A stretch of DNA of 64,000 nucleotides from contig JAJCZJ010000088.1 in NCBI GenBank assembly GCA_029262455.1, positions 270,273-334,272 on the forward strand, read 5' to 3'. Within the stretch, counting starts at the first letter, position 1. Each line of letters begins with the position of its first letter. The stretch is from Deltaproteobacteria bacterium. Its GTDB lineage: Bacteria > Desulfobacterota > Binatia > HRBIN30 > CADEER01. The notes beneath the pieces were generated by a model. The model did no database searches. It was not told the origin of the DNA and was given only the letters and a program-made list of their open reading frames with translations. This document shows, one piece after another, positions 9,934 through 64,000 of the stretch. The position numbers and the translations under genes are program-made.

Positions 9934-10806
9934 ATGTCGCGACTCTTCCAACGGACGGCCTATTCCGCCGGCAGGATTCGGAGAGCGGAAGTGATCCGCG
10001 GGCCGACGGGCTCATTGCCGCGTTCGCGATCTGCACCGGCATTGGCCGCAGTGCTGAGCACGCTCGGGCTCACTGCGGTGGTTTACGGGCAGGTCGTAGA
10101 GCCGGTCGTGATCGCACCGACATGGACAGAATACGTCGATGCCCTGGGAGTGTTGGAGGCTAGAAGCGCCGACGCCGACGCGGTCGCCACGGCGCTCTTT
10201 CGGGTGCAGAACGAAATCGGCCGGCGAAGGCCCAGTTCTAGGAACAGGCCGCCGTGCGACGACGAGGGGCTGGCGTCCCTGGCGCCTCGCGCCGAGGTCC
10301 TCGGTGTCGCGTTGCGAGACCGATTGCAAGCTGCACGGGCGCAGGCGCGTCGCGTCGATCGGCTCGCTGCGGCGCCCACGGTCGCACCGTTGGTGGACGG
10401 CCGAACCGGCCATCGACGGGCGGTCGTCACGGATCGCGTGACCTCTTCGACCGACATGTACCTGGAAGCCGTGGCCTGGCACGAAGGCCAGGTCGCCGAC
10501 TTCATTCGTCGTTGCAATCCGCCGCTTGCCCTCGCTGAGGGATTGGCCGTACCAGGGCCGTCGGGGCTCGATCCCAACCCAGACGGCGAACGGCCGCGGG
10601 TCGCGGTCATCGCACTACAAGGAGGTCGGATTTGCCCCGCCGGGGCGGTCACCTCGGGTGTCGCAATCACGGACGGACAGGCCTGTTACGGGGACGAGGA
10701 CTGCTCGTGCGAGCCCGCAGTCGTACTTCCAGCCGCCGTGCTCGGACCCTCCGAAGGCCAAGCACCCGAGCCCTCACCGATCGCCAGCGCCGGGTCGGCG
10801 AAGTAA
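9934..10806 (+). CDS. Hypothetical Ala-rich protein, possibly secreted
   Basis: 290-aa ORF with a possible signal segment (PALAAVLSTLGLTAVVYGQV). Its 3' end overlaps the convergent gene by ~120 nt, which lowers confidence. Confidence 0.35.
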   Translation: MSRLFQRTAYSAGRIRRAEVIRGPTGSLPRSRSAPALAAVLSTLGLTAVVYGQVVEPVVIAPTWTEYVDALGVLEARSADADAVATALFRVQNEIGRRRPSSRNRPPCDDEGLASLAPRAEVLGVALRDRLQAARAQARRVDRLAAAPTVAPLVDGRTGHRRAVVTDRVTSSTDMYLEAVAWHEGQVADFIRRCNPPLALAEGLAVPGPSGLDPNPDGERPRVAVIALQGGRICPAGAVTSGVAITDGQACYGDEDCSCEPAVVLPAAVLGPSEGQAPEPSPIASAGSAK

Positions 10807-12332
10807 GCCTTGCGCAGGCTCTCGTCTGCTTCGGCCTGGCGGCCCGAGAGCTGGAGCGCCGTCGCGCGCAGGACCAGTGCCTCAGGATCCCAACGATCTC
10901 GCTCGAGAACTTCACTGGTGAAATCGAACGCTTGTTCGGGGCTCTCGGGTAGCACTGCGGCCGCCGCGACGAGGGAGTCCTCTCGACTTCGCGACGCAGG
11001 CAGACCCTCCCGCACGTGGAGATCGCCGGCTTTCAGCCGTGCCTTCCACCGGAGGCGCCGCGCAAGGTCGAAACGATGCAGCGACTCCGCCTCACGGGCG
11101 GCGTCCTCGTGCCGCCCGAGATCGTTTGCGAGAGCCATGCGCAAGGTTTTCGCCTCGGCGATCGCTCCGCGTGTGATGAGCTCTTCGAGCAGGTCATAGG
11201 CTTCGCGAAGGCGTCCCTCGCGCACTTGCAGCGCCACCCGGCGACGAATCGGCTCTGGAGCGTCGCGGTCTACGTCCGCCCACTCGGCCAGCAGGCGCTC
11301 GTAGTCGGCGCCCGGCCCCTCCCGTTCCGCGATGTCGACGCGCAACGCGACCACGGCGGGGTCACGCTCGTGGTGTCGCGACAGCCCGTCGAGAAGCGAC
11401 CGTGCAACTCGGGGCTCGCCGACGTCTAGATACGCGGCGGCGCGCGCCACGGGGAAACGGCTGTCCTCCGACCACTGCGTTGCCAACGACTCCCACGCCT
11501 GCAGCGCGCCCGCTGCGTCCCCCGACGCGGACAGTGCGGCAGCGACTCCGGCGCGAAGGGCGAGCCAGTCTCCCCCCGTCACGACACCCGCTTCGAAGGC
11601 CAGGCGCGCGCCTCCCGGGTCGTTGGCGGCGAGCCGGCGGCGGCCGGCGAGCCATTGCGCTGCGACCATCGTCGGGTCGACTCGCAGCGCAGCAGCCAGC
11701 GGCCCGAGGCGTCCGTAGGTGACGCCGGCCGGAAGCGGCAGGTCGTAGTCAGCGACGGCCGCCCTGCCCAGGAGCAAGCGCGCGTACCGGTCGGCGGACA
11801 CCGGTCGCCGCCACTTCTCGATCATCGCAGGCCCGGCCGGGCGGTGCAGAGTCGCCGCGCACCAGACGAGCGCCTCGGCGACACCTTGGCCAAGCTCCTC
11901 CGCGTCGCCCGACCAAGTCGTCTCAGCGTACGACGCGTCAGGCGGCGAGAGCCGCAGCCGGATCTCCAGTGCGCCGCCGGTCGAGAACGAGGAAACGATC
12001 ACCGCCAGGCCCCAGTGCTCGACCCCGTGGCGCAGCCAGCGGTCCAGACCGGGGGCAGATCGCCCGTTGTTCCACGAAACGACGACGCCGTCGATCTCGA
12101 TCAGCCCCATTTCCATCAAGACGGCCACCAGACCGGCTCTCTCGACGCGCCAACGATGGTCACCGCGGACCTCCGGCCTTTCGACCAGGATCCTGGCGAT
12201 TGGCGGAGGACGACCGGGCTCGAGACCGCCGGCACCGTCCGCGATCGTGCTGGTCTCGCTGCGACAGCCTGTGCCGACGGCGCTTGCCGCCACGGTCATC
12301 AGGATGTAGGCGCGTAGGGTGCGCAAGCTCAT
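10686..12332 (-). CDS. Putative lipoprotein with TPR-like helical repeats
   Basis: N-terminus MSLRTLRAYILMTVAASAVGTGC is a signal peptide with a lipobox-like Cys. The Ala/Leu/Arg-rich body is helical-repeat-like. Confidence 0.5.
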   Translation of the reverse strand: MSLRTLRAYILMTVAASAVGTGCRSETSTIADGAGGLEPGRPPPIARILVERPEVRGDHRWRVERAGLVAVLMEMGLIEIDGVVVSWNNGRSAPGLDRWLRHGVEHWGLAVIVSSFSTGGALEIRLRLSPPDASYAETTWSGDAEELGQGVAEALVWCAATLHRPAGPAMIEKWRRPVSADRYARLLLGRAAVADYDLPLPAGVTYGRLGPLAAALRVDPTMVAAQWLAGRRRLAANDPGGARLAFEAGVVTGGDWLALRAGVAAALSASGDAAGALQAWESLATQWSEDSRFPVARAAAYLDVGEPRVARSLLDGLSRHHERDPAVVALRVDIAEREGPGADYERLLAEWADVDRDAPEPIRRRVALQVREGRLREAYDLLEELITRGAIAEAKTLRMALANDLGRHEDAAREAESLHRFDLARRLRWKARLKAGDLHVREGLPASRSREDSLVAAAAVLPESPEQAFDFTSEVLERDRWDPEALVLRATALQLSGRQAEADESLRKAYFADPALAIGEGSGAWPSEGPSTAAGSTTAGSHEQSSSP

Positions 12333-14643
12333 TGGGTACCTCGCCGTCGTCTTGTCACTAGCCTTCCTTGTCGGCGCTGGCTACGGGCTGCATTGGTTCA
12401 ACCTGCACGTGTGGTCGGAGTTGCCGAGCGACCTGAGCTCGCTGCGCGACTTCCGCCCGCTGTCCAGCTGCCTCGTCTACGCGGCCGACGGTAGCCGCAT
12501 CGACCAATTCTACATCGAGCGCCGTATCTGGGTCCCCATCGACGAGATCCCACCGATCGTCTGGCAGGCCTTCGTCGCAATCGAAGACCGACGCTTCCTC
12601 GATCACAAGGGAATCGACCCCGTTGGCATCATGCGCGCGGCCGTGCGCAATATGCAAAGCGGCAACGTGATGGAAGGCGCCTCGACGATCACCCAGCAGA
12701 TCGTCAAGAACCTCTTGGTCGGCAACGATCGAACGTACCGCCGCAAACTCAAGGAAGCCGTTCTGGCGCTTCGCCTCGAGCGCGAGCTCGACAAGATGAC
12801 GCTGCTCGAGATCTATCTGAATCTGGTCTACCTGGGTGACGGAAACTACGGCGTCGGGGCGGCGGCAGAGGATTACTTCGGCCGGCCGGCACGCGAGCTC
12901 GACCCCGGACAAGCCGCAACTCTCGCCGGTCTGGTGGCGGCGCCGTCGCGACGCTCTCCGCGCAAGCACCCGCGGCGCGCCGCGGCGCATCGGCTCCAGG
13001 TGCTTGCAAGCATGGTCACCGGCGGCTACCTGTCCGCGGCGGCGGCGGCGGGCTACGAGGGTGATCCGGTGTACGCTCCCTTGCAGGCCGCGGAGCCGCG
13101 CACGCGAGCCGCGGCCTACCAGACCGTCGTGCGGCGGGAGATCCGCACGCTGCTCGGCCGGCAGGCGCCGTTTCGTCTCGGACTGCGTGTACACACCGCC
13201 CTCGACCTGGATATTCAAGAAACCGCCGAAGACGCTCTGCGGAAGGCGCTGCAGGCAATCGACGAACGGCAGGGCCGCCGCGGGCGGGTGGCCGTGTTGT
13301 CGCAGTCGGAGGTCGAGGCCTTCCTGCGGCGAGCGCCTGGACTGCCGGCGCCGGCCGGGCATGACGCCCCGCCCGAACCGCAGGCAGGGAGCTGCTTTCC
13401 CGCTGTGCTCGGCCGAGCCGGGCTGGACGAGCTGCGTGCCGCGTCTTGGTCGTATCGGATGCGGGACGATCAGCGCGAGGTTCTCGTGTACGCTGGAGAG
13501 CGCGGCGAAGCTCCCTTGCGGGAGATGGTCCGCGAAGGCGACATTCTGCAGGTATGTCTCGACCAGAACGGCGAGGCAGGGTTGGACACGACGCCGCGCG
13601 CAGAGGGAGCAGTGGTCGTGATCGAGAACCAGACCGGCTACGTCCGCGCGATCGTCGGCGGATATCGTGACCGACTCGAAGGGTTTGTCCGAGCCACACA
13701 GGCACGCCGGCAACCCGGCAGCAGCTTCAAGCCCTACGTCTACGCCACCGCACTGGTGGCAGGGCGCCGGCAGACTTCGCGTGTGCTCGACGGCCCGTTG
13801 TCGCTGCCGGCGGGAAACGGCAAGGTCTGGAGCCCAGGCAACTTCGGCGATCGGTATCTCGGGTGGGTGCGAATGCGCGAGGCGTTGGCAGCCAGCCTCA
13901 ACTCGGTGGCAGTCCGCCTGGCTGTGGAGGTCGGCGTCCCTGCGGTGGTGCAGACGGCTCGGGCGATGGGTGTTCGTTCGCCGCTCGAGAGCAATGCGGC
14001 GCTGGCACTCGGCGCCAGCGAGGTGACCCCGATGGATCAGGCGCTCGGATACGCCACGATTGCTCGTCAGGGAGTCCCCACTGATCCAATTTTCATCCTC
14101 TCGCTGCAGGATGATCGGGGCGGCGTCGTTGCGCAGGCCGGCCAACGGTTACCGAGCGATCTCGGCGGTGCGCGGCTACCCGGCGGCCCTCTGCCACGAG
14201 CCCTGCCTGCAGGAGTGGCCTACGAGCTCGCCGACATGCTGCGCAACGTCGTCGAGTCGGGAACGGGCAGGCGGGCCTTCGATCCGGATGGTGATCGCGC
14301 TGGCAAGACGGGTACGACCAACGGTTTCGCAGACGCATGGTTCGTCGGATTCACCTCGCGCTATACGATCGCAGTCTGGATCGGCACCGACGACCGGGAG
14401 CCGTTGGGCCACGGGGAGACCGGATCGCGCGCCGCTCTCCCGGCCTGGCTGCGAATCGTCGAATCGCTGCCCCACCCTCAAGGCGCACGCTTTGCCGTCC
14501 CCGACGAGGCCGTTATCGTTCGCGTCGGCGAACGCTGGCTCGGCTTTCCTCGCGGCCGCGCCCCGCGCGATAGCCTACCACGGGCGACAGCTTCGGACGC
14601 CCCGCTTCCTCCCTTCCTCCGTCGGTCGGCGCTCAGGCACTGA
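12319..14643 (+). CDS. mrcA: Penicillin-binding protein 1A (bifunctional transglycosylase/transpeptidase)
   Basis: An N-terminal TM anchor, the GT51 motifs AFVAIEDRRFLDHKGIDP and EGASTITQQIVKNL, and a transpeptidase region with GSSFKP. GTG start. Confidence 0.85.
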   Translation: MRKLIGYLAVVLSLAFLVGAGYGLHWFNLHVWSELPSDLSSLRDFRPLSSCLVYAADGSRIDQFYIERRIWVPIDEIPPIVWQAFVAIEDRRFLDHKGIDPVGIMRAAVRNMQSGNVMEGASTITQQIVKNLLVGNDRTYRRKLKEAVLALRLERELDKMTLLEIYLNLVYLGDGNYGVGAAAEDYFGRPARELDPGQAATLAGLVAAPSRRSPRKHPRRAAAHRLQVLASMVTGGYLSAAAAAGYEGDPVYAPLQAAEPRTRAAAYQTVVRREIRTLLGRQAPFRLGLRVHTALDLDIQETAEDALRKALQAIDERQGRRGRVAVLSQSEVEAFLRRAPGLPAPAGHDAPPEPQAGSCFPAVLGRAGLDELRAASWSYRMRDDQREVLVYAGERGEAPLREMVREGDILQVCLDQNGEAGLDTTPRAEGAVVVIENQTGYVRAIVGGYRDRLEGFVRATQARRQPGSSFKPYVYATALVAGRRQTSRVLDGPLSLPAGNGKVWSPGNFGDRYLGWVRMREALAASLNSVAVRLAVEVGVPAVVQTARAMGVRSPLESNAALALGASEVTPMDQALGYATIARQGVPTDPIFILSLQDDRGGVVAQAGQRLPSDLGGARLPGGPLPRALPAGVAYELADMLRNVVESGTGRRAFDPDGDRAGKTGTTNGFADAWFVGFTSRYTIAVWIGTDDREPLGHGETGSRAALPAWLRIVESLPHPQGARFAVPDEAVIVRVGERWLGFPRGRAPRDSLPRATASDAPLPPFLRRSALRH

Positions 14644-14684
14644 TTGATGCGAGGAGCAACCTCCGATCAGCAGGAAGCTACGCC

Positions 14685-15956
14685 ATGAGGGCCACCCTGG
14701 CACCTGTAGCTGCTCTGCTGCTCAGCGTCGCACTCCTGCTGATGGGCAACGGCCTTCAGGGGACGCTACTGCCGGTCCGCGCTCAACTCGAGAAGTTCTC
14801 GACGTTCGATATCGGTGTTCTTGGGTCGTGCTATTTCCTCGGCTTTGCGGCCGGGTGCTATCTGGGGCCCTACGTGGTGCGGCGTGTCGGGCACATCCGC
14901 GCTTTTACGGCGACGGTTTCGCTCGCCTCGACCTTGGTGCTCGTCCACGCCTTGGTAGTTCAACCGTCTCTCTGGTGGTCGATAAGGGCGCTGACCGGGT
15001 TTTGTTTTGCCATCCTCTACATGGTGATTGAGAGTTGGCTTAGTGAAAAATCGACCAACGAGAACCGCGGCGTTGTGTTTTCCTTGTACACGATCATCAA
15101 TTTCACCGTCGTGACACTTGGGCAGATGATGTTGACGCTCGGCGACCCTACGGCCTTCCCCCTTTTTGCTGCGGCTTCCATCCTGGTGTCACTCGCTGCC
15201 CTCCCGGTTGCGCTGACCAGTGCACCGGCGCCGGCGCCGATCGCGACCGTAAAAATCCGCGTTCGTCACCTCTACGAATCCTCGCCCGTCGCGGTTGCCG
15301 GTGTCCTGGTCGTAGGATTTGCGAACGGCTCGTTCTGGGCGCTTGGGCCAGTCTTCGCATTAAGCAATCCTTTCATCTCGGGAACGACTGGAATCGCGTT
15401 GTTCATGAGCACCGCCGTTATTGCGGGCGCTGCCGGGCAGTGGCCGCTTGGACGTCTTTCGGATAAGATCGATCGCCGCAAGGTCATTGTGATTTCTTGT
15501 GCTGGTGCGGCCTTGGCAGGTATCGGGATGAGCATTTTCGCAGACCGGTGGGAACAGGCTGTGTATGCTTTCGCATTTCTCTTCGGAGTTTTCGCGTTTC
15601 CGCTGTATTCCTTGTCTGCCGCGCACATGAACGATTCCGTGGAACCGGGTGGCTTCGTGGAGGCCTCCAGCGGCCTCCTCTTGCTCTATGCCGTCGGGGC
15701 CGTTCTTGGCCCGCTGATGGCCGCGTCGACCATGCGTATCGCGGGGCCGAATGGACTGTTCCTTTACACTGCGGCGGCACACGCCGTGATGGTCCTGTTC
15801 GCCGCTTACCGACTTCATCGCAGCCCGCGCCCGACAGACGATCAACGCGAGCCCTTCATGGATTCGGTTCGCGTCGCGCAGACCATCGTCCCGCTCGATC
15901 CTCTCGACCCACTCGACCCACTCGTGGAGCATCCGCCAGAGAGGCCGGAAGAGTAG
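14685..15956 (+). CDS. MFS transporter
   Basis: 12-TM-like hydrophobic profile. An AGGAAG RBS precedes the ATG. Confidence 0.8.
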   Translation: MRATLAPVAALLLSVALLLMGNGLQGTLLPVRAQLEKFSTFDIGVLGSCYFLGFAAGCYLGPYVVRRVGHIRAFTATVSLASTLVLVHALVVQPSLWWSIRALTGFCFAILYMVIESWLSEKSTNENRGVVFSLYTIINFTVVTLGQMMLTLGDPTAFPLFAAASILVSLAALPVALTSAPAPAPIATVKIRVRHLYESSPVAVAGVLVVGFANGSFWALGPVFALSNPFISGTTGIALFMSTAVIAGAAGQWPLGRLSDKIDRRKVIVISCAGAALAGIGMSIFADRWEQAVYAFAFLFGVFAFPLYSLSAAHMNDSVEPGGFVEASSGLLLLYAVGAVLGPLMAASTMRIAGPNGLFLYTAAAHAVMVLFAAYRLHRSPRPTDDQREPFMDSVRVAQTIVPLDPLDPLDPLVEHPPERPEE

Positions 15957-58850: not shown

Positions 58851-59098
58851 CAGGTCCGTCTCCTTACATCCTGTTCCGCACCTCCTCCCATAGAGCGCCG
58901 CCGCCAGCAACCGCAACGCGCAAAGCGCGGCGCCACAGCATCGCTGGTGCGAAAAAGAACCGGCAAACGTCCAGTTTGCGACGCCGCATAACAGGTAGAA
59001 ACCCCGGTCGCTGGCGAAAATCTACCGTGCACTACGGTCCAGCCAGGTGGCATGGCCGCTGCATATCCAAAGAGATAGTTCAGCAGTGGAATGAATCC

Positions 59099-60331
59099 GT
59101 GAGAGTCCTACTTTCCGTCGCAATACTCCTCGCTTGCGCACCAGCTGTGTCAGCACGCATGTTGTTCGTAGCCGGCCAACCCGTACCGGTATCGTCGCGG
59201 CCACGATACCTCGCGACCGACGATATCGATCAGGACGGCCTTGCCGACGCCATTGTCGTCAGCACGCGCGACACTCTCTCGATCCTCTACGGCTCCGAGA
59301 CCTCGCAGACGCTCTTCAGCGCGCCGCAGGTCGTCACCTTCGGCCGCCGTTTGCGCAGACCCAACACCGGTGACGTCAACGCCGACGGAATTACCGACAT
59401 CGTCGTGCCCGACGAAAGCAGCGGGGCCGTGTGGGTCCTGCTCGGCGAGGGAACTCGCGGCTTCGCCGCACCGCGGCTTATTCCTGTGGGAAGCAAGATG
59501 AGGCCATACGCAGTCGCGATCGGAGACATCGATGGCATCGGCGGCAACGATATCGTCGTCGGCGAACGGCGCAGCGGGCAAATCCACGTGCGACTCAACA
59601 CCGCCGCTTTCTCCTTTCGCAACGGGCCGGTCATGAACACCCGGGGCGGACTCGAACAGATCGAATGTGAGGATCTAAACGGCGACGGTCTGCCTGAACT
59701 GATCAGCGTCTCAGCCGGGCGCGTCGGACGCGTTTCAGTATTCCCCGCCACGGCACAGGCCAATGGTTCCCTCACCTACGGCGACCCGATGTCATTCAAC
59801 ACCGATTCGACCAAAGCGAGCTTCGCCACCGGCGACTTCGACAACAATGGTACGCGCGATCTAGCCGTCCTTTCCAGAACCCGCGGCGGCAAGAACAGCA
59901 TCCTCGGCATCAGATCGACGAACCCGGATCACAGTGTCGGCGCGTCTTTGTCCCTCGAAGCACCCTGTCCCGATCAGGGCCGCCGCCGCTTCTGCAGAGC
60001 CCGAGGCATCGCGGCGGCCGACTTCGATAGAGACGGCATCATCGACCTGGCGATCGGCCTGCGCAATCGCGCCGTCCTCGGAGCCTTGGGAACGAGACGT
60101 TCCGGCGTCGTCGCAATCATGCGCGGCCGCGGCGACACCTTCGTCGCCGCCGACAGCGCCCCGTGGCTGGAAAAAGCACCCGCCGAGATCGACTCAGGCG
60201 ATTTCGACGGCGACGGCCGCCCCGACATCGTCGCCATCAGCAAGTCGAGCAGCCTCCTACAAGCAATGCGAAACATCTCCTCACCCGGCCCAACCGTGCG
60301 CAGAAAGCGCCGCGTCGAGCCTCGCAGGTAA
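59099..60331 (+). CDS. Secreted FG-GAP/VCBS-repeat beta-propeller protein
   Basis: A GTG start gives the signal peptide MRVLLSVAILLACAPAVSA. Repeated DxDxDGxxD Ca-binding loops (TDDIDQDGLADAIVV, GDVNADGITDIVV, EDLNGDGLPELISV, GDFDGDGRPDIVAI). Confidence 0.6.
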   Translation: MRVLLSVAILLACAPAVSARMLFVAGQPVPVSSRPRYLATDDIDQDGLADAIVVSTRDTLSILYGSETSQTLFSAPQVVTFGRRLRRPNTGDVNADGITDIVVPDESSGAVWVLLGEGTRGFAAPRLIPVGSKMRPYAVAIGDIDGIGGNDIVVGERRSGQIHVRLNTAAFSFRNGPVMNTRGGLEQIECEDLNGDGLPELISVSAGRVGRVSVFPATAQANGSLTYGDPMSFNTDSTKASFATGDFDNNGTRDLAVLSRTRGGKNSILGIRSTNPDHSVGASLSLEAPCPDQGRRRFCRARGIAAADFDRDGIIDLAIGLRNRAVLGALGTRRSGVVAIMRGRGDTFVAADSAPWLEKAPAEIDSGDFDGDGRPDIVAISKSSSLLQAMRNISSPGPTVRRKRRVEPRR

Positions 60332-60364
60332 GATCCTATTATCGCGAGCTTTGAGGATGGCGAG

Positions 60365-60652
60365 TTACAGCTTCGGCGATCGCTGGGCACTGTGCCAGAC
60401 GCGGACGATCTCAAGCGGGTCGGAGTCCGGCAAAAAGATTATTTGGTACGAGTAAACCGGGTGAAACCGGTACTTCGGATCAATCTTCGGCCGCGTGTAG
60501 CCAATACGGGGTTTTGCGGCCAAGAGACGAAATGCGTCGTGGAACTCTTGCTCGACACGGAGCGCCGAATCGAGGTTGTCCTCGGCGATGTACGCGAAGA
60601 TCTCAGCGACATCGACCTCAGCTCGCGGGGCGAGCCGATAGGTCTTGCTCAT
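60365..60652 (-). CDS. parE: ParE/RelE-family type II toxin
   Basis: 95 aa. YQIIFLPDSDPLEIVRVWHSAQ is the typical ParE C-terminus. ATGA overlap with the upstream antitoxin gene. Confidence 0.8.
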   Translation of the reverse strand: MSKTYRLAPRAEVDVAEIFAYIAEDNLDSALRVEQEFHDAFRLLAAKPRIGYTRPKIDPKYRFHPVYSYQIIFLPDSDPLEIVRVWHSAQRSPKL

Positions 60653-60894
60653 TGCCGCTGACGGAAAGACTCCGCTAGCTCCGCCATGTGCTGGCGAAAC
60701 TGCTCTTCGGTGACGTACTCGCCCCGGTCGAGCTCGGCCTGACCTTCAGCGATCGCTTCGCGAATCGCATCGGTTTCGGCCTCTTGCTGCTCCCGTTGGT
60801 CGAGCAACTCGGTGAGGTATTCTTCGGCCGACGCGTAGCGGCCAGCCTTGACTGGCGCGGCAAGTCGGTCCTCGAGTTTCTTGTCCAGCTTCAT
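60649..60894 (-). CDS. parD: ParD-family type II antitoxin
   Basis: MKLDKKLEDRLAAPVKAGRYASAEEYLTELLDQRE...AIAEGQAELDRGEYVT is the ParD (PF03693-like) pattern. Confidence 0.7.
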   Translation of the reverse strand: MKLDKKLEDRLAAPVKAGRYASAEEYLTELLDQREQQEAETDAIREAIAEGQAELDRGEYVTEEQFRQHMAELAESFRQRQ

Positions 60895-61001
60895 GCCGGT
60901 AGAGTCTACAACAGGTTCGGAAACGTGAAAAGCGTCGTATCCCAATTGAGTTCAACAGGGGAGGCCCTTGATCACACAAGCCCGGGCTGGGAAAAGCTTC
61001 C

Positions 61002-61139
61002 GGCGATTTCGACGGCGACGGCCGCCCCGACATCGTCGCCATCAGCAAATCGAGGAACCTCTTACAGCAATGCGAAACATCTCCTCACCAGGGCTCACGG
61101 TGCGCAGAAAGCGCCGCGTCGAGTCGCGACGGTAAGATC
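61002..61139 (+). pseudogene. Duplicated, frameshifted copy of the last 138 bp of the FG-GAP gene (copy B; ~90% identical to 60197-60334)
   Basis: Direct alignment: GGCGATTTCGACGGCGACGGCCGCCCCGACATCGTCGCCATCAGCAA...GCGCCGCGTCGAG...GGTAAGATC. Copy B has a 1-nt deletion that breaks the frame. Confidence 0.6.
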
Positions 61140-61194
61140 TCTATCGCAATCTGCGCCCTTGCCTCACTCAGCGGACCTGGTGCGGAAAAAGAGT

Positions 61195-61343
61195 CAACAC
61201 GAAGACACAAGGACACGAAGACACGAAGATTGCGCGACTTGTCATGGCCGCACGGACCCTTTTCGAAACGGAGTCCATGGAGTGGCTAGCTCCTGGTCCG
61301 AAAAACCCTAACAACCCCTTTGTGTCTTCGTGTCTTTGTGTTG
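61195..61343. repeat. AT-richer inverted-repeat element: arms built from GAAGACAC/AAGGACAC octamers (61195-61228 versus 61314-61343) enclose an ~85-nt structured spacer. A T-run follows on the minus strand
   Basis: Seen directly in the sequence. It could be a MITE-like element, a structured sRNA or a minus-strand terminator. Confidence 0.4.
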
Positions 61344-61458
61344 AAAATAACGAACCACCGGTTCATCTGAGATGCCACTGAGACTGTGCTCTGACGGTGC
61401 GGGACGACGCAATCCCGTTACCTAGAGGCTCGGCCGTAGGCAATCAAATCACCGCGCC

Positions 61459-61527
61459 GCGAAACATTTCGTCTCCCGTCCCAACGGTATGCAGAATGCG
61501 CCGCGTCGAGCTTCGTGGGTAAGATCC
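61459..61527 (+). repeat. Third, more degenerate copy (copy C) of the FG-GAP gene 3'-end repeat
   Basis: GCGAAACAT...GCGCCGCGTCGAGCTTCGTGGGTAAGATCC aligns with 60266-60336 at ~80% identity. It shares the 3' flank ATCTGCGCCC with copy B. Confidence 0.45.
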
Positions 61528-61986
61528 CCGATCTGCGCCCGCTGCCCCAATTGTTGAGGTTCCTGCTACGGCCGAGCAGGGTTAGAGAGTCACTAGCCCA
61601 GGGTTCGAACCAGGGCCGACCCAGGGCTTCCGATGGTTGAGACGAACAGCAATGTGAAGTGGCTGTGCGCGATTCGATGAATCAACCAGTCTCAACCCGG
61701 CCCTGCGCAATGCGTCCGCAGATCGATCGATGCTCCCTCGGATAAACCTGGGCCCTTCGACTACAGCCCATGTCGGAGCAAGTCGGCATCGCGGGTCCCT
61801 GTCCCGGCAAAAGCAGAGGAGTAGTTTCCTCGGCAAAAACGAGATCTGCCCCTTAGCGGCGTAGAGTCTCCTCAGCAGCCTCCCGTAGGTTTCCCCCGAG
61901 CTGGCCTGGGACACACGACTTGGCAACACGCAATGTCAGCGGCATAACGGTAGCCGAGAAGAACGTCCCCGACGAAAGGCCAATGT

Positions 61987-63990
61987 ATGGCAAAAAGCAA
62001 AGCCTATCAGCGAGCGAAACAGAAAATCGAAGAGGCACGAGGCTCAGCGGCCTGGCGACTCGATCTCGCAGGGTTGGGTCTCACAGCTCTCCCTGACTCC
62101 CTGGCTCAGCTCACCAACTTGCAGAGCCTCTATCTCAGCTCCAACCAACTCACCGCTCTCCCTGACTCCCTGGCTCAGCTCACCAACTTGCAGAGCCTCT
62201 ATCTCAGATCCAACCAACTCACCGCTCTCCCTGACTCCCTGGCTCAGCTCACCAACTTGCAGATCCTCGATCTCAGATCCAACCAACTCACCGCTCTCCC
62301 TGACTCCCTCGCTCAGCTCACCAACTTGCGGATCCTCTTCCTCAGTTCCAACCAACTCACCGAGTTACCGGCGTCGCTGCGGCACTTGGCCGACAACGCC
62401 GTATTGCGCGAGCTCTACCTTCACGATAACCCGGCCCTCGAACTGCCCAGCGAGTTGCTGGGGCCAGAGCACGCACGGGACACTTACAATCCACCGAAGC
62501 CGCCAAAGGAGATCCTGGATTACTACTTCTCAACCCGCGGTGACGCCGGGCAGGCGCTGCGGGAACTTCGGCTGATCGTCGTCGGCCGCCCCAAGGTTGG
62601 GAAGACGACTCTGATCAAGCGACTGCGCGGCCATCCGATGGACCCGCACGAGGCCGAGACCCACGGCATCGACATTCTACCGATGGATCTGAAGTGTCCG
62701 GACGGCCCCCTCCGAGCGCGGGTCTGGGACTTCGGTGGACAGCACGTGTTGCATGCCATGCACGAGTTCTTTCTGCGCAACCGCTGCCTCTACCTGTTGG
62801 TGGTCGAACAACGCGCCAACGACGTCGAACGGGAGCTGACGTACTGGCTCCAACTGATCCGCAGCTACGCTGGCGATGCGCCGGTGGTCGTCGCGCTGAA
62901 CCAGAGCAAGGGTATCCCACGCTCCTTGGCGAGAGCAGCGCTGGAGCGAGACTACGGGCCGATTCTCGCCTGGGTTCCCACCGAGTGCGCGTCGGAAGAC
63001 GAAGTCCCCGGTGCCGACGCCACCATCGAGGCGCTGCGCGCTGCACTCACCACAACCGCAGCCGCGATGCCCGAGCCGAAGAAGCTTTTTCCGAAGAAGT
63101 GGTTGGCGATCAAGCAATGGCTAGAAGCCATGCAAGAGCCATACCTGGACTACGCCACCTACGCCGAGCATTGCGCAGAGTTGAACGAGCGCGATCCGCA
63201 GCAGCAAGCCGCCCTCGCAGCCGCCATGGATGAACTCGGCGTGGCACTCAACTACGCCCGCGATCCCCGCCTGCGCGACACCACCGTGTTGCGGCCGAAC
63301 TGGCTGGCCAACGGCATCTACGCGTTGCTGCGCGCCAACATTCTGGCGCCCGAACCGCTGGCGCCTGAGGGCGTGCTGACAGAGTCAATGGTCGGGACAG
63401 TCCTGAAGGTTGCGGGCCAGGCGAAGGTACTCGATGCGGCCGAGTACCCGCCCGAGAAGTGGTCGTTCTTGCTGCGGCTGATGAACCTCTTCCAGCTGAG
63501 CTTTCCACTCGACGAAGAGGGCGAGCGCTATCTAGTGCCGGCCTTGCTACCCGCCGATGAGCCGGTGGACAGCGGCGAACCGGGCGGCCCGAACCAAGTG
63601 AAGCTGCGCTACGAATTCGACGTCGTCCCAGGCCCGCTGATCGGGCGCTTGCTCGTACGCCTGTTCGCGATCATCGACGGCCGCAAGGTTTGGCACCGCG
63701 GTGCGCGGCTGCGCTACGGCGATGCAAAAGCGCGCGCGTGGGCCGATCTGGAAGAGAAGTACGTCTTCGTCAGCGTTGCCGGCGACGCGAACGATGCCGC
63801 GGAGCTGCTCGAGATGATTCGCGAAACGCTCAAAGAGTTGTTCCGTGAATACGAACGACTGCGCGTCGTCGAGCAGTGGTGGCACGGCGACAACTGGGTG
63901 CCGCGCGGCACCCTGGAGCAGATCGGCGTGCTAGCCCGCGAAGTGGTCAGCGAAGGCAAGCAACCGGGCGGACAGGAGGTGCGCGATTAA
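61987..63990 (+). CDS. ROCO-family GTPase: LRR - Roc (Ras-of-complex G domain) - COR
   Basis: At least five LRRs (LTALPDSLAQLTNLQSLYLSSNQ). The P-loop RLIVVGRPKVGKTTLIKRL and switch II WDFGGQ. A long COR-like C-terminal region. Complete ORF ending in TAA at 63990. Confidence 0.85.
   Translation: MAKSKAYQRAKQKIEEARGSAAWRLDLAGLGLTALPDSLAQLTNLQSLYLSSNQLTALPDSLAQLTNLQSLYLRSNQLTALPDSLAQLTNLQILDLRSNQLTALPDSLAQLTNLRILFLSSNQLTELPASLRHLADNAVLRELYLHDNPALELPSELLGPEHARDTYNPPKPPKEILDYYFSTRGDAGQALRELRLIVVGRPKVGKTTLIKRLRGHPMDPHEAETHGIDILPMDLKCPDGPLRARVWDFGGQHVLHAMHEFFLRNRCLYLLVVEQRANDVERELTYWLQLIRSYAGDAPVVVALNQSKGIPRSLARAALERDYGPILAWVPTECASEDEVPGADATIEALRAALTTTAAAMPEPKKLFPKKWLAIKQWLEAMQEPYLDYATYAEHCAELNERDPQQQAALAAAMDELGVALNYARDPRLRDTTVLRPNWLANGIYALLRANILAPEPLAPEGVLTESMVGTVLKVAGQAKVLDAAEYPPEKWSFLLRLMNLFQLSFPLDEEGERYLVPALLPADEPVDSGEPGGPNQVKLRYEFDVVPGPLIGRLLVRLFAIIDGRKVWHRGARLRYGDAKARAWADLEEKYVFVSVAGDANDAAELLEMIRETLKELFREYERLRVVEQWWHGDNWVPRGTLEQIGVLAREVVSEGKQPGGQEVRD
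62080..62355 (+). repeat. Four near-identical 69-bp tandem DNA repeats encoding the LRR units of the ROCO gene
   Basis: Seen directly in the sequence: CTCACCGCTCTCCCTGACTCCCTGGCTCAGCTCACCAACTTGCAGAGCCTCTATCTCAG(C/A)TCCAACCAA is repeated with 1-3 substitutions per unit. Confidence 0.8.
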
Positions 63991-64000
63991 ACCTCGGAAC

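Follow-up and report, generated by a model that had tools for sequence, protein, structure and literature searches.

A short palindrome near the right-hand end of a 64-kb window (the whole 64,000-nucleotide stretch of DNA analysed here) raises the question of what kind of element it represents. The original prediction, made from the DNA sequence, saw in it a MITE-like element or a structured RNA that sat as a cassette of its own between att-like repeats and might also terminate minus-strand transcription. Here, we describe a computational analysis of this element, of its surroundings and of its relatives in other genomes. We propose that it is probably a gene-less 'solo', a MITE- or REP-like copy of a widespread family of octamer-arm palindromes that is associated with GxxExxY genes and is perhaps driven by a nuclease.

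A repeat finder places an imperfect inverted repeat of 151 bp at 61194-61344, where it had been predicted, with arms at 61194-61220 and 61318-61344 that are 27 nt long, 85% complementary and 97 nt apart. An alternative register pairs 61205-61228 with 61318-61341 (24 nt, 92% complementary), and the distance between the arms is 89-97 nt depending on the register chosen. The building block of both arms is an 8-nt unit, ACACRAAG or CTTYGTGT, direct copies of which the repeat finder reports at 8-nt spacing at 61197, 61205 and 61213 (n=3). The left, purine-type arm (61194-61229) reads TCA, then ACACGAAG ACACAAGG ACACGAAG ACACGAAG, then A, and holds four units of the skeleton N-C-R-C-N-R-A-G. The right, pyrimidine-type arm (61318-61344) reads CTTTGTGT CTTCGTGT CTTTGTGT followed by TGA; its three units are the reverse complement of ACACAAAG ACACGAAG ACACAAAG. 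The element is therefore ordered with ACACGAAG... on the 5' side and ...CTTTGTGT on the 3' side, around a spacer of about 88 nt (61230-61317) that contains neither a gene nor a recognisable gene remnant; no strand is assigned to the arms or the spacer. The stacking of octamers is borne out by the double octamer GAAGACACGAAGACAC, which at up to 3 mismatches has five matches, all within the element, where 0.81 are expected and none of 100 shuffles reaches five. Segments of period 8 are found in the 64-kb window solely in the two arms, and the window thus carries one copy of the element. The predicted contrast in composition also holds: the element has a GC content of 0.517 (0.41-0.47 in the arms) against 0.614 for the window, which places it within the lowest ~1% of 151-nt windows. 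Elsewhere in the window, positions 10001-15000 have a GC content of 0.66-0.72, above the ~0.61 found outside them.

A 24-mer from the spacer had no match in metagenome contigs, and blastn of the spacer against all fetched loci (200+ related loci) matched a single contig from the same genome, L121. This Logan contig (SRR15505514_976973, from the source sample) corresponds to window positions 60223-61340; one of its ends breaks inside the right arm, a hint only that the arm sequence is repeated in that sample, and the other stops inside an FG-GAP repeat.

The element lies in about 850 nt of non-coding DNA strewn with gene relics. Repeats of the kind taken for att sites are indeed present, in three copies (A, 60262-60335; B, 61066-61139; C, 61453-61526). 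They consist, however, of the final ~22 codons of FG-GAP genes (...RNISSPxPTVRRKRRVExRR*) and of a short stem across the stop codon. Copy A is the 3' end of an intact FG-GAP gene (58976-60331). Copy B is a frameshifted relic of such an end (60968-61135, plus strand), which over ~140 nt (60999-61139) is 93% identical to copy A and differs from it by a 1-nt frameshift; the element begins 58 nt past its stop codon, and the open reading frame directly upstream of the element is this relic. Copy C consists of the C-terminal codons alone (PRNISSPVPTVCRMRRVELRG*), the rest of the FG-GAP gene being absent, and about half of the changes that set it apart from copy A are synonymous, suggesting that it derives from a paralogue that was formerly functional. 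The stem, GCGCAGA...TCTGCGC, lies across the FG-GAP stop codon at 61102-61156 and in the corresponding parts of the other copies; copies B and C both conserve it. Since the repeats are relics of FG-GAP 3' ends, the idea of a cassette between att sites is unsupported.

Between copies A and B lies a ParE/ParD toxin-antitoxin pair (60365-60945, minus strand), and this arrangement of parDE between two FG-GAP 3' ends (60194-61139) looks like the outcome of either a target-duplicating insertion or recombination between paralogues. The sole sizeable minus-strand reading frame to the right of the element, orf115 (61582-61929), lacks both a GC3 signal and a Pfam match and for this reason is treated as non-coding; on the same grounds we rejected it as a gene that the element might end. 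The next real gene (61987-64000, plus strand) is of the Roco type, encodes LRR, Roc and COR domains and runs past the end of the window. A series of 69-nt tandem repeats at 62011-62424 corresponds to the leucine-rich-repeat units of this Roco-type protein (LRR, Roc GTPase, COR-A, COR-B).

The arms have many relatives in other genomes. With each species represented by one genome, a scan for three units in a row (ACACRARGACACRARGACAC), for which about 17 matches are estimated by chance, returned at least 120 loci, and the matches listed come from Bacteroidota, Acidobacteriota, Verrucomicrobiota, Chloroflexota, Planctomycetota, Latescibacterota, Cyanobacteria, Chlamydiae, sphingomonads and others. 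Of the 120 seeds listed, 67 are matched within 400 nt by an inverted partner (15 or more of 20 bases), as against 3 of 234 random 20-mers, and among these matches the purine-type arm stands first in 61 and second in 6. Spacers of the matches listed measure 4-175 nt (median 47), with one group at 100-120 nt, like that of the window; they are unrelated between members. Neighbouring palindromes use other units built on the same N-C-R-C-N-R-A-G skeleton, among them GCACAAAG, CCACAAAG, GCGCAAAG, ACGCGGAG and ACACAGAG, and long rods consist of nested modules of differing unit types. By crude calling of reading frames, the palindromes are intergenic and usually lie ~5-30 nt (to 100 nt) past a stop codon, often occupying the entire gap between convergent genes; where both neighbours were called, these were convergent in 11 cases, tandem in 24 and divergent in 3. 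Most calls that put a palindrome inside a reading frame fall in high-GC loci, which are rich in spurious frames. The family exists, is present in multiple copies and lies just 3' of genes, and the arms in the window belong to it.

Several of the matches listed contain at least 3 elements per 8 kb. At one locus (L008), three copies have an identical outermost A:C mismatch, with no target-site duplication evident at these copies, and two copies in a single acidobacterial genome (L003 and L013) have irregularities of their arms in common. Such common mismatches and irregularities point to copying of the elements from one another and would be unexpected of hairpins that had evolved independently. 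The pattern is rare in viral contigs (10 loci).

A gene is associated with this family. At two of the loci selected by their arms, ~400-500 nt separate the arms and a single small gene lies in the interval; the two gene products both score against TIGR04256 ('GxxExxY protein') and PF13366 (PDDEXK_3) at E values of ~1e-43 (2e-43 for TIGR04256). A tblastn search found a GxxExxY gene at 6 of the 120 arm-selected loci listed, at 5 of which the arms enclose or immediately adjoin it, and it is the sole type of gene found inside the palindromes of these loci. Among the arm-selected loci listed, gene-less loci outnumber gene-bearing ones by about 20:1, so that ~95% have no gene. The window element resembles the majority: tblastn found no GxxExxY homologue in the 64-kb window, and a six-frame profile search found no remnant of one in its spacer or in the other gene-less copies. 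A decayed GxxExxY gene as the origin of the window's spacer was rejected on the result of this search.

The palindromes are tightly and specifically linked to GxxExxY genes. In a reverse test, 80 metagenome loci were fetched by GxxExxY protein alignment alone, of which 73 were testable; they represent the closest relatives of the proteins from the arm-selected loci, and more distant PF13366 members may differ. At least three C-R-C-N-R-A-G motifs occur in the 160-nt flanks at 69 of the 73 loci, where by our own calculation ~0.16 would be expected. At 52 of the 73, the two flanks form an inverted repeat with a score of 12 or more (median 17), compared with 12 of 73 mismatched flank pairs (median 8.5). 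The 5' arm often touches the ATG, and the 3' arm often lies 0-30 nt past the stop codon. The order arm-gene-arm is found at 40 loci and a reversed order of the arms at 12, and a hairpin-gene-hairpin layout also occurs. When the intervals bounded by arms and filled by a reading frame are considered, 39 of 46 encode GxxExxY. The remaining seven comprise five ordinary host genes that stand between separate hairpins and two intervals (L067 and L179) without a convincing reading frame. Proteins are 56% identical within a unit type (CAC or CGC) and 51% identical between types, and some alignment columns correlate with the unit, a comparison that is confounded by phylogeny. In literature of limited coverage we found no published description of a link between palindromes and GxxExxY or of repeats flanking these genes, and a similarly limited body of literature on the arm sequences, the octamer, palindromes and terminators contained nothing relevant.

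Two further observations concern the layout of these loci. In a Planctomycetaceae bacterium (GCA_003532715.1; L203, 2871-3482), a GxxExxY gene lies between two complete hairpins of the CTCACAAAGGCACAAAG type in direct repeat, a layout whose sequence is reminiscent of the integration of a cassette beside a resident hairpin. In some arms flanking GxxExxY genes (L131, L152, L167 and L186), 9-nt units such as GGACACCAAG replace the 8-nt units, and the period is therefore not fixed across the family.

The cassette also occurs at a common site in diverged genomes. In six of them (L124, at 1477-1950, and L123, L132, L125, L088 and L084), a GxxExxY cassette lies between the two methylmalonyl-CoA mutase genes; these genes form the flanks, which are 65-80% identical in nucleotide sequence among the six loci. 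The unit types of the six cassettes differ, yet the two arms of each match. A shared site in genomes this diverged suggests that the cassette is stably inherited and does not move often, and argues that at least some copies may be long-lived residents and not active movers.

The GxxExxY product is a protein of ~125 amino acids with a predicted minimal PD-(D/E)XK nuclease fold and putative nuclease activity. The cargo gene matches TIGR04256 and PF13366 only; defence and phage family libraries gave just weak Cas4-like matches, and no solved structure related to GxxExxY by sequence was found. Its relatives are numerous, with 7999 of 8000 scored candidates below an E value of 1e-10 (at least 7999), and the best 120 matches are 75-83% identical, their named sources including Chloroflexota, Planctomycetaceae, Nitrospirota and Deltaproteobacteria. 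A survey lists PF13366 as a domain of unknown function with multiple transfers (PMC3424549), and Pfam likewise gives no function for it. Within the limited literature covered on GxxExxY/PF13366 and on the protein family of 23S intervening sequences, we found 'function unknown' and incidental mentions only.

The window arms were aligned with the arms of 17 gene-bearing copies and fit them column by column. Compared with one gene-bearing copy, L149, the left arm has 1 mismatch in 24 positions and the right arm 2 in 24, and the end sequences TCAACAC...GTGTTGA recur at three other loci (L033, L035 and L091). Across this alignment, the arms of which were picked for complementarity, pairing is found in 91% of cells, and 12 of 24 pairs have changed on both sides, values that none of 500 shuffles reaches; covariation of this type is also expected from simply homogenised inverted repeats. 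Unit positions C2, C4, A7 and G8 are invariant. Position R3 co-varies across the arms and across all units together (A-U in 9, G-C in 9, none unpaired), and at each of its three columns N5 is left unpaired by 5-8 of the 18 sequences; it is mismatched in ~40% of cells. Mismatches between the arms show no sense-strand G:U bias, with 34 G:U against 38 A:C and 72 transversions. Invariant positions that are neutral for stability, combined with an N5 that mismatches freely, fit protein-binding sites better than a stable RNA stem.

On the strength of the arm match to L149, the order of the arms, the ends, the spacer length, the position past a stop codon and the absence of a gene, we file the window element as a gene-less member of the family. 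A full-length member carries a single GxxExxY gene of ~125 codons in its loop, between arms made of octamer arrays. These arrays may be symmetric recognition sites for the GxxExxY nuclease acting in trans. Cutting or resolution of the palindrome by this nuclease, in duplex, hairpin or cruciform form, could in turn drive copying or homing. On this view, the copy in the window would be a relic or a target that is not autonomous, in the manner of a MITE or REP. As a likely by-product, any transcript that crosses the element would form a hairpin of ~24 bp, which might stop or stabilise the upstream FG-GAP mRNA, an effect that is plausible as a side function. Against this explanation, no empty and filled pair of sites was found, and no target-site duplication is visible at the element, whose edges (AAAGAG|TCAACAC...GTGTTGA|AAATAA) show no clear direct repeat. 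The occurrence of one copy in 64 kb, the lack of a GxxExxY gene in the window and of a gene remnant in the spacer, and the constant site of the cassette between the mutase genes likewise count against it.

Readings in which the element acts through RNA need to be weighed against this proposal. The whole element folds much more stably than shuffled sequence, at -62.2 kcal/mol (z -5.9) on the plus strand and -62.7 kcal/mol (z -4.6) on the minus strand, and this would suit a stand-alone non-coding RNA gene (an sRNA, or a riboswitch-like or retron-like RNA) in which the arms form the closing stem and the spacer the functional core. The spacer by itself folds no better than shuffles, however (z -0.23 and -0.69), so that the signal comes from the arms alone and the internal complementarity that had been noted in the spacer (CGGACC/GGTCCG) is at chance level. 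Rfam returned nothing at gathering thresholds in the window, nothing at the element up to an E value of 10 and, at 18 family loci, nothing except one tRNA; a promoter consensus scan found no promoter-like site at the element; the metagenome scan and the 200+ related loci yielded no homologue of the spacer, family spacers of 4-175 nt are unrelated to each other, and the arms lack a strand-specific G:U bias. The structured-RNA half of the original prediction is on these grounds extremely improbable. It is unlikely, if considerably less so, that the element is a host-selected hairpin at the 3' end of the FG-GAP mRNA, serving as a terminator without a U-tract, a barrier to 3' exonucleases or an RNase III site, with GxxExxY genes merely lodging there. 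Such a role would account for the placement of elements 5-30 nt past stop codons, often filling convergent gaps, for the maintenance of complementarity while unit types change (12 of 24 pairs on both sides, against 0 of 500 shuffles) and for the complete pairing of the 24-nt register on the plus strand, which includes two G:U pairs; as a by-product it is also compatible with the explanation that we prefer. An intrinsic terminator has a G+C-rich stem, a 3-8-nt loop and a U-tract directly after the stem, however, and the element differs from this form, with a loop of 89-97 nt, no U-run on its plus strand, where the stem is followed by GAAAATAAC, and no site in a terminator consensus scan. It also counts against this reading that no sense-strand G:U bias is seen, that N5 is mismatched in ~40% of cells while positions irrelevant to stability are invariant, and that one sequence recurs across phyla with mismatches common to several copies, unlike independently evolved terminators. 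As to termination on the minus strand, the predicted tail TCTTTTTCC is present beside the element and a loose form of termination is possible, but the run of five T residues begins 5 nt past the stem, the consensus scan reports no terminator there and the minus-strand reading frame downstream has no coding signal.

Two other readings make the arms a binding site for a different protein. The commonest unit of the pyrimidine-type arm, GTCTTTG(T), found for instance at 61318-61341 of the window, equals the preferred heptamer of Bacillus subtilis CspB, 5'-GTCTTTG/T-3' (PMC1904285). An array of sites for a host protein of the cold-shock type that binds single-stranded nucleic acid could therefore be imagined, in which the hairpin would melt on binding, so that termination or mRNA decay would depend on temperature, and the spacing of the units would make such sites abut. 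The likeness to the heptamer is one of resemblance only, common variants (CTCTGCG, CTTGGCG and CTTAGTG) deviate from it, and the exclusive link to GxxExxY is left unexplained; moreover, the family is present in Cyanobacteria, which largely lack CspA-type proteins. We consider this reading very unlikely. Scarcely to be credited is a local DNA site, whether a boundary of an integron-type cassette (attC) or an operator or iteron array, for example for the ribbon-helix-helix antitoxin ParD. In its favour, the ends of the element, AGTCAAC and GTTGAAA, are each one base off the attC core consensus (RYYYAAC / GTTRRRY), the parDE pair is adjacent with ParD encoded 250 nt away, and ribbon-helix-helix proteins bind tandem repeats of 7-9 bp. 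The flanking repeats are gene relics and not attC sites, however, the copy-B relic separates the element from the start of parD, and relatives elsewhere lie 3' of unrelated genes and have no association with parDE or integron genes.

Returning to a nuclease-associated palindrome as the preferred reading, we put forward more tentatively a broader possibility, that octamer palindromes and GxxExxY genes together make up an unrecognised mobile or self-propagating element found across phyla. The nuclease would read the tandem 8-nt sites that make up the two arms, act upon the hairpin or cruciform once extruded, and spread both the gene and thousands of gene-less palindromes, of which the window element would be a non-autonomous copy; such an element would be distinct from IS/MITE, REP/RAYT and integron systems and from introns and homing endonucleases. 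Small palindromic repeats such as REPs and MITEs affect transcription, mRNA stability and genome rearrangement. To our knowledge, each known class of small palindromes stays within one lineage and goes with an IS-type or HUH transposase; in the present family, a single unit grammar spans Bacteroidota to Planctomycetota and is tied to a very large, highly conserved and uncharacterised protein family. The link supplies that family with a concrete candidate substrate, the octamer arms, and offers a possible account of intergenic hairpins of a common type that go unannotated by current pipelines. For the window itself, a more ordinary and testable reading supplants both the 'att cassette' and the 'novel RNA'.

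The family can be set beside several known systems. Like integron attC sites, its members are imperfect palindromes that can border single-gene cassettes, as in the hairpin-gene-hairpin arrangement of L203; unlike them, they show no association with an integrase, deviate from the core sites, have periodic arms and are dispersed rather than arrayed. With the intervening sequences of 23S rRNA that carry a small reading frame, and with homing-endonuclease genes, they share a small gene for a nuclease fold in the loop of a long stem that leaves no room for a promoter, and a position that may fall within an operon, here between methylmalonyl-CoA mutase genes. In contrast to those systems, the host sites of the family are intergenic instead of rRNA genes or introns, and its repeats are octamer arrays; the reading frame family usually named for intervening sequences is, in addition, a four-helix-bundle protein. 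MITEs such as the Correia elements of Neisseria and ERIC resemble the family in being intergenic, non-coding elements of ~100-150 bp whose terminal inverted repeats give a long hairpin in transcripts, and 'MITE-like' is the better half of the original interpretation. The window element has terminal inverted repeats (27-nt arms, 85% complementary), and its arms belong to a multi-copy family present in many phyla, with gene-less copies in ~20-fold excess among the arm-selected loci listed. Gene-bearing relatives exist, but their product has a predicted PD-(D/E)XK fold and is no known transposase, nor is an IS-type partner known; no target-site duplication is seen. The arms, furthermore, consist of repeated subunits and the spacers are unconserved between copies. 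REP and REPIN sequences with their RAYT genes are likewise short intergenic palindromes in many copies, mostly 3' of genes and often paired or nested, with one small associated gene that is flanked by the repeats and far outnumbered by gene-less copies. A REP, however, is a 20-40-nt palindrome headed by GTAG, where the arms of the present family are tandem arrays of 8-nt units, and REP sequences are lineage-specific, where the unit skeleton of this family recurs across phyla; finally, RAYT is a Y1 HUH transposase, and the gene of the octamer-arm palindromes encodes a predicted PD-(D/E)XK nuclease.
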